31,894 nucleotides of DNA from a virus (taxonomy: Duplodnaviria > Heunggongvirae > Uroviricota > Caudoviricetes), in the IMG/VR virus record IMGVR_UViG_2558860161_000001; one strand, given 5' to 3'. The notes under the pieces are model-generated. The model searched no databases and was not told the origin of the DNA. It saw nothing but the letters and a program-made list of their open reading frames with translations. The position numbers and the translations under genes are program-made. Numbering within the stretch: position 1 is the first letter of the stretch; the number at the start of each line of letters is the position of its first letter. Shown here in pieces: positions 21,012-26,558 of this stretch.

Positions 21012-21262
21012 TGAAAGAATACCGCTATTCCGGCCCGGCCAGCGGCGTCACGCTGTCGGACGGAACCGAAATCCTGCTCTGGCCGGGGAAGAATGTTTCC
21101 CTGCCGGAGGAGCATGACTATGTGAAGGTACTGGTGGCGCTGAAGCATCTGACACCGGTATCTGAAGAGACTAAACCCGCCAGCACACCGGTTGTGCAGT
21201 CACCAAAGCGCAGGAACGCCGGCGACAACGATGTGAAAACGGAGGACTCCCATGGCAGCTAA
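21011..21262 (+). CDS. Hypothetical protein (83 aa)
   Basis: ATG at 21011 overlapping the upstream stop. Precedes the sheath gene. Confidence 0.45.
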   Translation: MKEYRYSGPASGVTLSDGTEILLWPGKNVSLPEEHDYVKVLVALKHLTPVSEETKPASTPVVQSPKRRNAGDNDVKTEDSHGS

Positions 21263-22679
21263 CTATCTGCATGGCGTCGAAACCATTGAGGTGGAAAACG
21301 GTGCCCGCCCGGTAAAAATGGTGAAGTCTGCCGTCATTGGCCTGATTGGTACCGCCCCGATGGGGGACGTCAATACGCTGGTGCAGTGCCTGTCTGAGAA
21401 AGATGCAGCGGCGTTTGGCAGCCAGCTCACCGGTTTTACCATTCCGCAGGCGCTGGATGCGATCTACGACCATGGGGCAGGCACCGTTCTGGTCATTAAC
21501 GTGCTTGATCCGGCTGTGCATAAAACCGCTGTGGCCGATGAAGATGTAACGTTCGACAAGGCGACGGGCAAGGCACAGCTGGCTAATCCGGTGGTCGCGC
21601 AGCTGGTACTGAAACCGGACAGCGATGGCCAGCCTTATGTGGAAGGTCAGGACTACTCGCTTGATGCACAGACCGGAGTGATTACCAACCTTGGTAAGAG
21701 CATTGCCGCAGATGCAACGGTGAAGGCCAGCTATAACTATGCTGATCCAACTAAAGTCACCCCGGCTGATATCATCGGTGCCGTTAACGCTGCGGGCAAC
21801 CGTACCGGCATGAAGCTGCTTAACGACAGCTTCAACCTGTTTGGCTACTTCGCAAAAATACTGATTGCCCCGGTCTTCTGCACCCAGAACAGCGTCTCGG
21901 TTGAGCTTATCGCCATGGCTGAGAAGCTGGGCGCGGTGACCTACATCGACGCGCCGATTGGTACCACTTTTGCGCAGGCTCTGGCGGGGCGTGGCCCGGA
22001 AGGCACCATTAACTTCAACACCAGCTCCGACCGCGTCCGTCTGTGCTACCCGCACGTCAAGGTGTACGACGCGGCCACCAACAGCGAACGGCTGGAGCCG
22101 CTGAGCCAGCGTGCTGCAGGTCTGCGTGCCAAAGTCGACCTGGACAAGGGCTACTGGTGGTCGTCCTCCAACCAGGAAATTCTGGGTATCACCGGCGTGG
22201 AGCGCCAGCTGTCGGCAATGATTGACGACCCGCAGAGCGAGGTGAACCTGCTCAACGAACAGGGCATCACCACGGTCTTCAGCAGCTACGGCAGCGGCCT
22301 GCGTCTGTGGGGCAACCGTATGGCGGCATGGCCAACGGTCACCCATATGCGCAACTTTGAGAACGTTCGCCGTACCGGTGATGTGATCAACGAGTCCCTG
22401 CGTTACTTCAGCCAGCAGTACATCGACATGCCGATTACCCAGGCGCTGATTGATGCGCTGACGGAGTCGGTCAACGCCTACGGTCGCAAGCTGATTGGCG
22501 ACGGTGCGCTGCTGGGCTTCAGCTGCTGGTTTGATCCGGCCCGCAACGAAGAGACGGAGCTTGCCGCCGGTCACCTGTTGCTGAGCTACAAATACACGCC
22601 ACCACCACCGCTGGAGCGACTGACGTTTGAGACCGAGATCACCTCGGAATATCTGTTAACCCTGAAGGGGAATAGCTGA
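21252..22679 (+). CDS. Tail sheath protein (Mu L-like)
   Basis: 475 aa, followed immediately by the tube gene. Conserved C-terminal sheath region (LRLWGNRMAAWPT...). Confidence 0.85.
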   Translation: MAANYLHGVETIEVENGARPVKMVKSAVIGLIGTAPMGDVNTLVQCLSEKDAAAFGSQLTGFTIPQALDAIYDHGAGTVLVINVLDPAVHKTAVADEDVTFDKATGKAQLANPVVAQLVLKPDSDGQPYVEGQDYSLDAQTGVITNLGKSIAADATVKASYNYADPTKVTPADIIGAVNAAGNRTGMKLLNDSFNLFGYFAKILIAPVFCTQNSVSVELIAMAEKLGAVTYIDAPIGTTFAQALAGRGPEGTINFNTSSDRVRLCYPHVKVYDAATNSERLEPLSQRAAGLRAKVDLDKGYWWSSSNQEILGITGVERQLSAMIDDPQSEVNLLNEQGITTVFSSYGSGLRLWGNRMAAWPTVTHMRNFENVRRTGDVINESLRYFSQQYIDMPITQALIDALTESVNAYGRKLIGDGALLGFSCWFDPARNEETELAAGHLLLSYKYTPPPPLERLTFETEITSEYLLTLKGNS

Positions 22680-23200
22680 TGGCAAAGATTGAGATCAACC
22701 GCATCACGAATGCCAACATCTACCTGGATGGCGCTAACCTGCTGGGCCGGGCCGAGGAGGTCAAACTCCCGGACGTCTCCATGACCATGCAGGAGCATAA
22801 GGCGCTGGGGATGGTGGGCAAAGTGGAACTCCCGGCAGGCTTCGACAAGCTGGAGGGTGAGATCAAGTGGAACAGCTTTTACCGCGACGCGATGCTGTCT
22901 GCTGCGAACCCGTATAAGTCGCTGGCGCTGCAGTGCCGTTCCAGCGTCCAGCGCTACAGTTCGCAGGGGCTGATTGACGAAATCCCGCTGGTCACATTCC
23001 TGACGATCATGTTCAAGAAGAACCCGCTGGGGACGTTCAAACAGCACGAGAACGCCGAGTTCTCTAGCAGCTTCACCTGCACGTACATCAAGCAGGTACT
23101 GGATGGTGAAGAGCTGCTGGAGCTGGACTATCTGGCCAACATCTTCCGAGTCGGCGGCGTTGACCAGTTGACTGACTACCGCATCAATATCGGGGGCTGA
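22679..23200 (+). CDS. Tail tube protein (Mu M/P2 FII-like)
   Basis: 173 aa with TGATG overlap to the sheath gene. Confidence 0.8.
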   Translation: MAKIEINRITNANIYLDGANLLGRAEEVKLPDVSMTMQEHKALGMVGKVELPAGFDKLEGEIKWNSFYRDAMLSAANPYKSLALQCRSSVQRYSSQGLIDEIPLVTFLTIMFKKNPLGTFKQHENAEFSSSFTCTYIKQVLDGEELLELDYLANIFRVGGVDQLTDYRINIGG

Positions 23201-23202
23201 CG

Positions 23203-23484
23203 GTGACCGTCGAGATTGAAGATAAAGGCGGGAACTGTGGTTCGATTGGCATGGGAAATGGTACGTGGTTTACCATCCTTGATATTCCGGGGGTGGAAAA
23301 CCTTTTTAATACCCAGAAAACCAATGATCCGATTGACTGCACCCGCTCTAAAGCACGGAAGCTCGCTGACCTGATTGAGGCATGGGAGCCACCTGACCAC
23401 TGGTTCACCGGCATCGGCAAATCTGAAGGAAAGGCGCTTCTTATCGCCTTCCTGCGTAACTGCAAAGGCTTTCGCACTCACTGA
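23203..23484 (+). CDS. Orphan small ORF (93 aa) between the tube and chaperone genes, unknown function
   Basis: GTG start 2 nt after the tube stop, with a GGGGG stretch upstream. Followed immediately by a strong intrinsic terminator. Coding status is uncertain. Confidence 0.4.
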   Translation: MTVEIEDKGGNCGSIGMGNGTWFTILDIPGVENLFNTQKTNDPIDCTRSKARKLADLIEAWEPPDHWFTGIGKSEGKALLIAFLRNCKGFRTH

Positions 23485-23491
23485 TATCACA

Positions 23492-23514
23492 GGGGCTTCG
23501 GCCCCTTTCTTCTT
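23492..23514 (+). terminator. Rho-independent terminator (GGGGC-TTCG-GCCCC then TTTCTTCTT)
   Basis: Perfect 5-bp GC stem with a UUCG tetraloop and a U-rich tail. Confidence 0.65.
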
Positions 23515-23582: not shown

Positions 23583-23897
23583 ATGTCACAGACCCAATCC
23601 GATACTTTTAAGCTGTCTTACCCCTTCACCACCGCAGCAGGCACCAGAGTTGAGCAGGTTGAACTGAAACGCCTGACGGTCAAAGACCTGAAGCAGGTGC
23701 GCAAAATCAGTAAAGACCCGGCTGACTGGGACGAACCGCTCATTGCCCGTAGCACCGGTATTCTCCCCGAAGACCTCGATAACATGGATCTTGCCGATTA
23801 CATGGAGCTGCAGAAACGATTTCAGCAAGTCACTGGGCTGGGCAAGAGCGACGAAAACGCTGATGCAGGCGCAGGGGCTGCTGGCGAGGTGGTTTAG
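23583..23897 (+). CDS. Tail assembly chaperone (P2 gpE-like)
   Basis: AGGAG Shine-Dalgarno 7 nt before ATG at 23583. 104 aa. Located between the tube and tape measure genes. Confidence 0.6.
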   Translation: MSQTQSDTFKLSYPFTTAAGTRVEQVELKRLTVKDLKQVRKISKDPADWDEPLIARSTGILPEDLDNMDLADYMELQKRFQQVTGLGKSDENADAGAGAAGEVV

Positions 23898-24000
23898 ATT
23901 TCAGCCGGGGGAGATTGATGCCCTCGATACTGACGATCTGGAGATGTGGCTGGAGCAGGCTGAAGAGCAAATCAAAAGCGAGTTCGGCGACAATCAGTAA
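23743..24000 (+). CDS. Putative frameshift-dependent C-terminal extension of the tail chaperone (E'-like), in the +1 frame
   Basis: Overlapping ORF in the +1 frame relative to the chaperone, open from 23743 and extending about 100 nt past the chaperone stop, with no good independent start. Geometry resembles G/GT or E/E+E' pairs. Confidence 0.35.
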   Translation: MPVAPVFSPKTSITWILPITWSCRNDFSKSLGWARATKTLMQAQGLLARWFRFQPGEIDALDTDDLEMWLEQAEEQIKSEFGDNQ

Positions 24001-24013
24001 CGACTCATCACTT

Positions 24014-24036
24014 AACAGCCGCCCCTCGCGGCTGTT
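24014..24036 (+). terminator. Hairpin AACAGCCGC-CCCTC-GCGGCTGTT upstream of the tape measure gene (possible attenuator)
   Basis: 9-bp stem. The T-rich sequence is not immediately adjacent. Confidence 0.35.
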
Positions 24037-24092: not shown

Positions 24093-26558
24093 GTGGCCAG
24101 TGAATTTTCAGTCGGCGTCATTATTGGCGGCATTGTCGGAAGCAGCTTCCGCTCAGCCGTCAGTGGCACCCGACGCGCCCTAGATTCCCTGGGCGATACA
24201 TCGCGCCGCCTGCAGGAACGCCAGAATGCCTTAACTCGTGCAACTGAACGTTATGGCCAGTTAGGCTCTTCCCGGATGCAGCGCCTCAACAGCGAACTGC
24301 TGCGGGTAAGCCGCACAATGGAGCAAATTGAACGCCAGCAGCGCCGTCTGTCAGCAGTATCAGCCACCAGTGACGCGCTGAAAGCTAACCGCATGGCGCT
24401 CTATGGCCAGGGAGCAGAGACTTATGGTATCGCCCGAACGCTGGGCGCACCGGTCATGGCCTCTGTCAAACAATATTCATCGTTTGAATCCCAGCTACGC
24501 GATATCAGTGTCACCGGTGATCTGGATTCAAGGCAGGAACAGGCCATCGGTACTGCCATTCGTCGGGCATCCCTGCAGGTCAATCAGCTCCAGGAATCTC
24601 TGTTGAGCGGCGTTGGTCAACTGGTTGCCGATGGCATGAATCCGCAGCAGGCAGCGACCTTTGCCGGGATGCTCGGTAAAGCGGCCACGGCCACCAAAGC
24701 AGATATGACTGACCTCGCAAAAATGACCTATGCCTTTAGCGATGCGCTGAAAATTACCGATGCCAAAGAGCTGGAGCAGGCGTTTGGGATTGCGGCAACC
24801 GGGGCCAAGCTAGGCTCGTTTGAGCTGAAGGATATGGCGAAAGCGTTACCCGGTATGGCCAAAGCCTTCGCTGCACGTGGTATTTACGGCAAAGACGCCA
24901 TAACCCAGATCGTAGCCAGTCTGGAAGTGGGTAAAGGCAGCGGCTCAGCGGAAGAGGCCGTCACCAATATGTCAAACTGGCTGGCGGCAATGGGACGCGG
25001 AGATACCACGCAGAAATACGCTAAGGCTGGCGTGGATTACCAGGGATCAATGCAAAATTATGTAGCCCAGGGGTTCTCTCAATATGAAGCCTCCCTGATG
25101 ATTGCCAACCGGTTTATCGACGGTAAAGGCAAGGCATTTGTGCAGCAATGGAAGGCGGCAGGCTCAAGAGGCGATCAGGAAGGCCAGCAGAGGCTGATGG
25201 AGTCCTTCGGACTGGCGGAAGTCTTTACCGATATCCAGACCGTGAACCATCTACTGTCTATGCGTCAGGGCTGGGATAAGTACCAATCTAACAAGCAGGA
25301 AATGAACACTCCCTCTGCAATGTCTACGCTGGACAAGGATGCAGCGAAACAAAATGATACGCTCGAAGGACGTTGGCGCAGAACGCAGATTGGGTTTAAC
25401 GACTCGGCCATTAGCATCGGAGAATCATTACGTCCGGCGTTGATCCAGCTGGGGGAAACATTCATCCCCTTAATGAACAGCGTTGGAAAATGGATTGCGG
25501 CTAATCCGCAACTCGTGAGCGGCACAATTCAAGTGATTGGCGCATTACTTGCGTTCAAGATGGCAACCATCGGCCTCAAGCTCGGGCTGAATCTCCTTAT
25601 TTCACCTTTCGTCAACGTCTGGAAAAATGCCGTGCTCCTGCGGGCCAACTGGCTTCGCCTGACACTCGCGCTGGGTGAAGGCGGCAAACTTCGCTGGCTG
25701 GTGACCGGCTTCAGCGCCGTCGCCAGAGGAGCCAGAACACTGGGTGGTGTGCTGTCAGGTGGGCTGGTTCGCGGCATTATGATCGCCGGGCGTGCCGTTC
25801 TCTGGATTGGGCGGGCATTGCTGATGAATCCCATTGGTCTTGCTATCACCGCCGTCGCGGCGGCGGCTTATCTTATTTATCGTAACTGGGGGGCTGTCAG
25901 CAGTTGGTTCAAACAGCGCTGGGCTGACATTAAAGAGGCTTTTAACGGCGGTATCGTGGGGATTGGTAAACTGCTGATTAACTGGTCGCCGGTTGGTCTG
26001 CTCTATAAAGCCTTTGCGGCTGCGCTGAAATATCTCGGCGTTGATCTGCCCGCGAAGTTCACTGACTTCGGTGGCCATCTTATCGACGGGCTGATAAACG
26101 GCATCAAAAACAAATGGGAGTCGCTCAAAACCACCGTCACAGATATGGGTGACAGTGTCGGCGGCTGGTTCAAGGAAAAGCTGGGTATCCATTCGCCGAG
26201 CCGCGTGTTTATGGGCTTTGGTGACAACATCGCGCAGGGTGCCGCTATCGGCCTGCAGCGTACCACACCACTGGCAGCGCTCGCCGGACAACGCCTGGCA
26301 ACAGAGATGACTCCCGATGTTCCCCGTATCCCGTCGCCGGAAATCATGGCTGCGGGATATTCAGGTCGTGGCGCAGTTGCAACTGGCGGCGGAACATCTG
26401 GCGGTATCCAGGTCAGCTTTAATCCTCAGTTTTTCCTCAATGGCAAAGAAACCGCAGCGCCTGCCGGACTGACCGGCGCACTGAATATGAGCCTGCATGA
26501 ACTGGAGAAAATGCTGGAGCGTCTGCTGGCTCAGAAACAACGTCGGGGGTACGAATAA
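24093..26558 (+). CDS. Tail tape measure protein
   Basis: 821 aa with a GTG start after AGAGGA. Helical N-terminal half, Gly/Ala-rich hydrophobic segments in the middle, position after the chaperone pair. Confidence 0.85.
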   Translation: MASEFSVGVIIGGIVGSSFRSAVSGTRRALDSLGDTSRRLQERQNALTRATERYGQLGSSRMQRLNSELLRVSRTMEQIERQQRRLSAVSATSDALKANRMALYGQGAETYGIARTLGAPVMASVKQYSSFESQLRDISVTGDLDSRQEQAIGTAIRRASLQVNQLQESLLSGVGQLVADGMNPQQAATFAGMLGKAATATKADMTDLAKMTYAFSDALKITDAKELEQAFGIAATGAKLGSFELKDMAKALPGMAKAFAARGIYGKDAITQIVASLEVGKGSGSAEEAVTNMSNWLAAMGRGDTTQKYAKAGVDYQGSMQNYVAQGFSQYEASLMIANRFIDGKGKAFVQQWKAAGSRGDQEGQQRLMESFGLAEVFTDIQTVNHLLSMRQGWDKYQSNKQEMNTPSAMSTLDKDAAKQNDTLEGRWRRTQIGFNDSAISIGESLRPALIQLGETFIPLMNSVGKWIAANPQLVSGTIQVIGALLAFKMATIGLKLGLNLLISPFVNVWKNAVLLRANWLRLTLALGEGGKLRWLVTGFSAVARGARTLGGVLSGGLVRGIMIAGRAVLWIGRALLMNPIGLAITAVAAAAYLIYRNWGAVSSWFKQRWADIKEAFNGGIVGIGKLLINWSPVGLLYKAFAAALKYLGVDLPAKFTDFGGHLIDGLINGIKNKWESLKTTVTDMGDSVGGWFKEKLGIHSPSRVFMGFGDNIAQGAAIGLQRTTPLAALAGQRLATEMTPDVPRIPSPEIMAAGYSGRGAVATGGGTSGGIQVSFNPQFFLNGKETAAPAGLTGALNMSLHELEKMLERLLAQKQRRGYE

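Follow-up and report, generated by a model that had tools for sequence, protein, structure and literature searches.

We examined an overlapping gene pair at positions 23583 to 24000 of the IMG/VR viral record IMGVR_UViG_2558860161_000001, a stretch of 31,894 nucleotides (nt) that was analysed whole and is called the window here. The pair consists of a tail assembly chaperone gene, read in what is taken as frame 0, and an overlapping extension in the +1 frame, which we call E' after its P2 equivalent; by gene order and DNA similarity, the surrounding tail module is that of a temperate myovirus of the BcepMu type (a Bcepmuvirus-type prophage). The best reading of the overlap, judging from sequence comparison, is a programmed frameshift that would yield a C-terminally extended chaperone, as the preliminary description of this DNA had proposed. 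The long chaperone is probably made by a +1 slip at UUU_C (23820..23823), which would give a 138-residue E+E' fusion.

The upstream open reading frame (ORF) belongs to the tail assembly chaperone family Phage_TAC_7 of Pfam, which it matches over residues 8-84 with 80.9 bits (cut-off 25; E = 6.8e-23), and the record of an identical E. coli prophage names it 'phage tail assembly protein'. Frame 0 begins at ATG 23583, with AGGAG 8 nt upstream, and runs to the stop codon TAG at 23895..23897. In the +1 frame, no stop occurs between the one at 23689..23691 and the TAA at 23998..24000, which leaves it open from 23692 on, and TTG 23743 is the earliest of the start codons listed for it; the end of the chaperone and the +1 ORF open to 24000 were thus found exactly where the preliminary description had put them. 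The two overlapping ORFs are placed between the tube and tape-measure genes, and the downstream ORF overlaps the end of the upstream one without a conserved start or ribosome-binding site. The -1 frame, on the other hand, has eight stops, from 23609 to 23863, which rules out a -1 shift into the long extension and would make any X_XXY_YYZ site ineffective. The canonical slippery heptamer with a -1-frame extension is accordingly absent from the window, where the -1 frame is closed, in line with the earlier remark that no usable heptamer is present. Such a heptamer marks the common subtype of these chaperones and not the functional class; Mu uses -2.

The comparison drew on 178 related loci, which were taken from phages in GenBank, from IMG/VR and from single genomes that each represent a bacterial species. 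Measured against the chaperone, the frame of E' is +1 in 122 of the 126 loci in the first scored set and in 49 of the 51 in the second, which makes about 170 loci. They form four deeply diverged clades, between which the chaperones are about 30-50% identical: an enterobacterial clade with members from Escherichia, Salmonella, Pectobacterium, Photorhabdus, Brenneria, Lonsdalea and others, and three clades from Ralstonia/Pandoraea/Verminephrobacter, from Pseudomonas (phage Bise) and from Burkholderia (BcepMu). Exceptions to +1 are of two kinds: P2 and the Pasteurellaceae relatives (a Pasteurella phage whose -1 site is a classical A_AAG_GGA, and two loci of Pasteurellaceae type) use -1, and at two further loci a single-base deletion has fused the frames. 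Given that the +1 arrangement is kept in nearly all loci of both sets, and that enteric-clade variation past about 23859 falls at third positions of the +1 frame, the overlap of the chaperone with the +1 ORF is not a matter of chance. A stop codon in the +1 frame of the relatives' overlap had been named beforehand as the observation that would speak against the proposal, and none was found in any relative scored. The identification of a tail chaperone pair with a +1 extension, made from the window's letters alone, is thus borne out by the Phage_TAC_7 match, by the placement between tube and tape measure and by the conserved frame. The shift had also been called the less common type: this is right when it is set against the usual -1 of tail chaperones, but the +1 arrangement is the rule in BcepMu-like phages and not unusual in the lineage, and Mu was already known to reach the same frame via -2.

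The predicted fusion comprises chaperone residues 1-80 (...LQKRF) followed by SKSLGW...GDNQ, 138 amino acids in total, the extension being SKSLGWARATKTLMQAQGLLARWFRFQPGEIDALDTDDLEMWLEQAEEQIKSEFGDNQ. Its C-terminal 33 residues, from LLARWF (23881) onwards, resemble Pfam Phage_P2_GpE, the profile that represents the E' portion of P2 gpE+E'. The window's peptide alone scored 15.7-16.5 bits (E about 0.006-0.011), under the curated cut-off of 23 bits. The same profile columns were matched by eight of nine peptides of the family, with 32.1 bits for one relative (L110), and a 14-sequence alignment of the E' family matched P2 E' with an hhalign probability of 93% (E = 3.3e-7). NCBI names a protein identical to the window's E' (WP_001148841.1) 'GpE family'; the NCBIfam scan gave zero matches, E' included, and a search for solved structures found none. 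The profile and hhalign matches of the +1 ORF suggest that the pair in the window is homologous to P2 E/E'. The motif P..LW.A..LLARWF is kept across clades, and the +1-frame peptide is conserved across them back to a Trp that lies 3-6 residues after the Phe of the proposed site and is kept in three clades.

A run of five G within E' (23907..23911) is an indel hotspot, at or beside which the database proteins P0003-P0005 and P0008 and the IMG/VR locus L082 are one base short. In database proteins from up to 12 contigs, such a one-base loss fuses the 111-residue frame-0 type to the C-terminal part of E'; in the 111-residue chaperone variants, frame 0 terminates directly after this run.

Stop codons in relatives set bounds on the position of the shift. 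On the 5' side, every sequence of the Ralstonia/Pandoraea type carries a +1-frame TGA 8 nt ahead of the TTT, and on the 3' side, frame-0 stops lie 30-33 nt after the TTT in the Pseudomonas clade and in three E. coli variants (L004, L052 and L053). If the site is homologous across the family, these stops would confine the shift to about 38 nt, from -8 to +30 nt of the TTT, around 23820. In the three E. coli prophages, the CAG equivalent to 23853..23855, 33 nt past the TTT, has become a frame-0 TAG, a change that is synonymous in the +1 frame; NCBI flags the chaperone gene of L004 as a pseudogene with an 'internal stop'. Should these phages be viable, the frame-0 tail would be dispensable.

The substitution pattern was computed on 54 unique enteric-clade sequences. 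Over the 47 codons before the site, changes are seen at frame-0 third positions, and no degenerate codon is without variation there. The last codons of the chaperone domain (Table 1) are almost invariant, and the next 33 nt (23826..23858) show changes at every codon position. From roughly 23859 on, variation falls at frame-0 first positions, which are the +1-frame third positions. At the run of four G at 23874-23877, all four +1-frame Gly codons are seen in relatives, with changes among A, P, S and T in frame 0, and this Gly-synonymous variation implies that the +1 frame is already being read there. Likewise, the window has TTTAGA where Escherichia phage PhiKM has TTCCGG, and the three differences are all synonymous in the +1 frame (W-F-R-F in both).

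Within the permitted 38-nt region, TTT followed by C is the only universal feature. TTTC was found in 84 of 84 unique junctions and in 14 of 14 unique junctions of the BcepMu clade (about 98 unique sequences). As background, TTT accounts in the flanking genes for 37% of all Phe codons in enteric-clade sequences and for 13-16% in those of the GC-rich clades, with TTTC at 1-6%; these values come from codon usage recomputed with a filter on GC content at third codon positions, the earlier estimate having been contaminated by spurious ORFs in GC-rich DNA. The residue after the Phe varies (Gln, His, Leu or Arg), and the first base of its codon is always C. The Phe stands at profile position 74 of TAC_7 in all four clades, and the -1 sites of P2 and of the Pasteurella phage lie 3-6 profile positions downstream of it. 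A manual alignment had equated this codon with the exact position of the slip-site Phe of P2; this was given up, as Pfam coordinates and hhalign put the two about three positions apart, and only proximity is claimed. The codon before the TTT is CGA in 78 of 84 unique sequences, CGA being 5-9% of Arg codons; it is TCC or GCC in the BcepMu clade and GCA, GCG or AAA in the Pseudomonas clade.

Two kinds of fused sequence were considered as markers of the junction and set aside. The 138-residue in-frame 'fusion' proteins in databases have junctions that differ from one another (an A run, a G run and others), which points to indel errors or mutations, and the in-frame fusion of Apirhabdus apintestini is caused by a 1-nt deletion 15 nt 5' of the TTT. 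On that chromosome, CTGGAGCTGCAG has become CTGGGCTGCAG by the loss of a single base, which leaves the whole chaperone in frame with E', so that only the fusion could be made; this reflects either a decaying prophage or a sequencing error. A pairing of CGAUUUC (23817..23823) with GAGAUUG (23911..23917), 88 nt apart and with seven pairs, two of them G-U, was likewise rejected, since it has no covariation and is lost in the BcepMu clade; both segments are conserved for coding reasons.

We propose that most ribosomes would stay in frame 0 and make the 104-residue gpE-like protein, and that a minority would shift +1 with the Phe codon UUU (23820..23822) in the P site. The tRNA-Phe (anticodon GAA) would leave UUU and re-pair one base downstream on UUC, its Watson-Crick cognate, and decoding would resume at AGC 23824 and go on to the TAA at 23998. 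The product would thus join the chaperone domain through ...LQKRF to a 58-residue E' domain. The direction of the slip is deduced from re-pairing logic, and +1 is favoured over -2 because tRNA-Phe cannot re-pair two bases back on GAU. The rare CGA before the UUU, which is read through an inosine-adenosine wobble, would then be in the E site, where it may weaken the pairing and promote the slip. UUU followed by a pyrimidine is said to be prone to +1 shifts in E. coli, as Schwartz and Curran reportedly found in 1997. By analogy with lambda G/GT and P2 E/E+E', both products may coat the tape-measure protein and the extension may recruit tube subunits, in which case the ratio of the two would matter. 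Since the -2 shift of Mu works at about 2.2%, a low efficiency would be adequate here.

Several observations weigh against a slip at this codon. The 33 nt past the site vary at all codon positions, and codon-position statistics alone cannot pin the shift to a single codon. The A-site codon is abundant (CAG in the window, where the long ORFs have 339 CAG against 52 CAA; CUG or CGC in other clades), so that the slow A site that usually stimulates +1 shifts is missing. CGA would not be essential, given that two clades have other codons there and that one enteric-clade sequence, from Lelliottia wanjuensis, alone in that clade has CGG before TTT_C. No Shine-Dalgarno-like element was found at the shift site, nor was an RNA structure supported by covariation: the z-score of the minimum free energy was -1.9, and the fold of the alignment was without compensatory pairs. 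Lastly, the invariance of the T bases could partly be due to double coding if the shift took place a few bases upstream, yet nothing upstream can re-pair.

One alternative is that the clades use sites of their own elsewhere in the roughly 38-nt region, which in the window could be a +1 shift of tRNA-Gly on GGG_C (23835..23838) or a -5 shift on CUGGG-CUGGG-C (23833..23843). Within the enteric clade, the GGG at 23835 hardly varies, and CUGGGC occurs twice in the window, 5 nt apart, so that CUG-GGC could re-pair perfectly 5 nt back and thereby enter the +1 frame. However, PhiKM-type sequences (ACGGGGATGGGT) are without the 5-nt CUGGG repeat, and the GGG codon is missing from a Salmonella locus (L008, AGC ATG GCT) and from the Ralstonia, Pseudomonas and BcepMu clades. 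In addition, the +1 frame codes for Gly-Trp at GGN TGG, with a Gly wobble that is free to vary, and this accounts for the conservation seen there. We consider such clade-specific sites unlikely.

It is improbable that E' is instead a separate small protein, made without a frameshift from the ATG at 23863, as in the NCBI view. An in-frame ATG does exist, and PGAP calls a 45-residue GpE family protein (WP_001148841.1) from it, so the earlier statement that the +1 ORF has no good independent start needs qualifying; it holds in that this ATG has no Shine-Dalgarno sequence upstream and is not conserved. It is missing from most relatives, many of which have ACG (the commonest E. coli type) or TGG (other clades), and no conserved start codon was found anywhere in the +1 frame in any clade compared. 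Moreover, the conservation of the +1 frame and its synonymous-type variation reach upstream of 23863, and both P2 and lambda produce their homologous or analogous domain as a fusion only (P2 record; PMC5009743).

A Mu-type -2 (or +1) shift on a G run, either GCA GGG GCT (23871..23879) or CCG GGG GAG (23905..23913), is very doubtful, even though -2 slippage on GG GGG CGA takes Mu into the same relative frame (PMC3458567) and single-base deletions at the five-G run fuse the frames in database proteins and in L082. The first run is not conserved, GGG being followed by G, C, T or A or replaced by GGC, all synonymous in the +1 frame, and was rejected as a +1 slip site on this account. The second (CCGGGGGAG) lies past the window's frame-0 stop and inside the conserved E' core, is missing in Ralstonia, Salmonella and BcepMu sequences, and was rejected as a Mu-like site. 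Furthermore, the frame-0 stops of other relatives lie upstream of both runs.

The preliminary description had placed the shift, as a possibility, near the GTT-TAG stop context (23892..23898), where a +1 event would have the appeal that A-site stops stimulate such shifts, after the prfB paradigm, and that GAGGTG just 5' of GTT-TAG resembles a Shine-Dalgarno sequence. This part of the proposal did not survive the comparison, and a shift there now seems highly improbable: many relatives, PhiKM-type phages among them, have a sense codon (CCG, CAG or TCG) in place of the TAG, frame 0 closes about 40 nt sooner in some, re-pairing of tRNA-Val on UUU fails at the first position, and the LLARWF motif, encoded 5' of the TAG in the +1 frame, would be skipped. 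To go by the aligned relatives, the shift must lie about 75 nt upstream of GTT-TAG, at 23817..23823.

Least credible of all is that the +1 ORF is an untranslated relic, or that the ribosome hops over 79 nt, taking off at UUU 23820 and landing at UUU 23899, for which there is a 9-nt direct repeat (GATTTCAGC; 23818..23826 and 23897..23905) with its copies 79 nt apart, a distance congruent to +1 modulo 3; a relic would not have kept its frame free of stops in about 170 loci, the stretch that separates the two copies shows conservation as a +1-frame protein across clades, with most variation from about 23859 to the second copy at +1 third positions, and the landing UUU is missing in the BcepMu clade (AAG ATT CAG). 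Both copies of the repeat spell R-F-Q, the first when read in frame 0 and the second when read in the +1 frame.

Nearly all characterised frameshifted tail chaperones use a -1 shift, and well-defined bacterial +1 sites are few (prfB, and some genes of Listeria and SPP1 phages). The class of mechanism at issue here is textbook; the unannotated variant is the conserved +1 site in BcepMu-like phages. Public records give the gene pair as two separate genes or as a pseudogene with an 'internal stop', or miss the extension, and none annotates slippage between the two. In the BcepMu record itself (NC_005882, 2103..2864), gp42 is described as the counterpart of lambda G, and gp43 as the product of slippage from it. 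Judged by Pfam, however, the chaperone (TAC_7) is gp41, while gp42 corresponds to the E' ORF of the +1 frame, given a start at an internal ATG, so the annotated frameshift pair gp42/gp43 is probably mis-assigned. Our literature searches found no description of a TTT_C site or of a +1 shift in BcepMu-like phages, a prior mention in Xu et al. 2004 being possible. The tool described in the PRFect paper correctly predicted none of the 481 forward frameshifts of the RECODE test set.

We put forward tentatively, as a possibility that falls short of a probability, that the BcepMu-like prophage family, found in E. coli (similar DNA in 639 of 5,426 complete genomes), Salmonella, Pectobacterium, Photorhabdus, Ralstonia, Pseudomonas and Burkholderia, holds a new bacterial +1 frameshift, with a minimal UUU_C that does without a stop codon, a rare A-site codon, a Shine-Dalgarno element or RNA structure, and that CGA in the E site may stimulate; this would be a bacterial counterpart of the PA-X shift of influenza A virus. 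As +1 signals go, a conserved UUU_C combined with a common A-site codon would be very simple, and it would offer a tractable E. coli system for the effect of the E-site codon (CGA, with its I:A wobble) on frame maintenance. A motif rule for the family would also correct the annotation in hundreds of genomes.

The genes of the window follow the order sheath, tube, a 93-codon ORF, chaperone and tape measure, and then homologues of gpU and gpX (Table 1). The closest DNA matches are a prophage of E. coli O19:H7 730V1 (100% identity over a 601-nt query from the window), 'Klebsiella phage KP12 clone KP12_2' (GenBank OM835952; 99.7% over 1.2 kb) and PhiKM, classified as a Bcepmuvirus (83%). The taxonomy line of OM835952 reads Vequintavirinae; the 35-kb partial sequence itself is a BcepMu/Mu-like temperate phage, with FluMu gp36-like and P2-type tail genes, and is probably a co-assembled prophage filed under the name of a lytic phage.

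Table 1. Positions of the chaperone pair, the proposed shift site and neighbouring tail genes in the window
Feature	Position	Strand	Basis
Sheath gene	21252..22679	+	Gene-order listing
Tail tube gene, 5' neighbour of the chaperone pair	22679..23200	+	Pfam Phage_tube, E = 1.1e-54
Tail assembly chaperone gene, frame 0, P2 gpE / Mu gp41 family, 104 amino acids	23583..23897	+	Pfam Phage_TAC_7
Block AAA CGA TTT CAG, end of the TAC_7 domain	23814..23825	+	Almost invariant; CGA and TTT with zero variation, wobble included
Proposed +1 shift site CGA_UUU_C: E-site CGA, P-site UUU (23820..23822), C 23823	23817..23823	+	TTTC conservation, stop bounds
Predicted +1-frame extension, E' equivalent, 58 codons and TAA (23998..24000)	23824..24000	+	Translation, cross-clade conservation, +1 codon-position pattern
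+1-frame ATG, start of a separate 45-residue 'GpE family phage tail protein' in the NCBI annotation	23863..23865	+	Unconserved
Conserved E' core LLARWFRFQPGEIDALDTDDLEMWLEQAEEQIK, putatively homologous to the P2 E' domain	23881..23979	+	Pfam Phage_P2_GpE, hhalign
Tape measure gene, 3' neighbour of the chaperone pair	24093..26558	+	Pfam PhageMin_Tail, E = 4.1e-16

The 93-residue ORF between tube and chaperone (23203..23484) is hypothetical in the KP12, PhiKM and E. coli prophage records, and its sole family match is a weak one to Pfam DUF7739 (E = 0.0027, under the cut-off); in the BcepMu record, no gene is annotated between the tube gene and gp41. A terminator-like hairpin, AGGGGCTTCGGCCCCT with a T-rich tail, stands 3' of this ORF and directly 5' of the chaperone gene (23491..23506). 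Between the E' stop and the start of the tape measure lies a 9-bp GC-rich hairpin without a U tract (AACAGCCGC / GCGGCTGTT, 24014..24036), whose stem is largely retained in PhiKM (ACAGCCGC / GCGGCTGT), where the loop differs. This hairpin might have a role in the ratio of chaperone to tape-measure expression or in mRNA stability.

When compared with known systems, the pair has the same placement between tube and tape-measure genes as P2 gpE/gpE+E' and lambda gpG/gpGT. With P2 it also shares the upstream family (Phage_TAC_7) and an extension that appears homologous (Phage_P2_GpE; hhalign 93%), and its proposed shift site, like the site of P2, falls where the chaperone domain ends, the two being no more than about three profile positions apart. 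However, P2 shifts -1 on T_TTT_TTG, whereas in the window the -1 frame is closed, the extension is in +1 and there is no heptamer.

The frameshifts of tail chaperones can be -1, -2 or +1 depending on the phage, according to reviews (PMC5009743). In Mu, a -2 shift takes place on GG_GGG_CGA (PMC3458567), its efficiency being 2.2%, and this was long described as the sole natural example of a programmed -2 shift (PMC3458567, PMC3498833), later cases having been listed since. Mu gp41 has the same relative extension frame as the window (+1 = -2), a chaperone weakly related to TAC_7 and a similar host range. Its chaperone nevertheless forms a distinct Pfam family (Gp41_Mu), its extension is not recognisably similar in sequence, and no Mu-type tandem -2 site (a G run and CGA, or an equivalent) is conserved in the permitted region from -8 to +30 nt. 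With the E. coli prfB (RF2) site, CUU_UGA_C, the proposed site shares an enterobacterial host and a +1 P-site slip onto UUN; prfB, however, requires a stop in the A site and a Shine-Dalgarno element 3 nt upstream, and 23817..23823 has neither.

The closest likeness in the slip itself is to PA-X of influenza A virus, in which a +1 P-site slippage takes place on the UUU_C of UCC_UUU_CGU at about 1%, with an effect of the E-site codon (PMC3498833). The proposed site would involve the same P-site slip of tRNA-Phe from UUU to UUC after a largely conserved codon, with no obvious RNA structure and a low expected efficiency, and the UCC/GCC_UUU_CGC of the BcepMu clade comes near to the PA-X nonamer. 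A site of the PA-X type has also been proposed for fijiviruses, chronic bee paralysis virus and amalgaviruses. As in such a site, UUU is in frame, is followed by C and is conserved against synonymous change, with TTT as background at 13-37% of Phe codons; the rare CGN codon in the A site is not found in the window, which has CAG, and CGC or CGT stands there in the BcepMu clade only. PA-X differs further in that it uses a non-bacterial ribosome and a rare A-site codon, whereas here the ribosome is bacterial, the A-site codons (CAG, CUG, CGC) are common and the E-site codon is mostly CGA. The resemblance between the two is convergent, not homologous.

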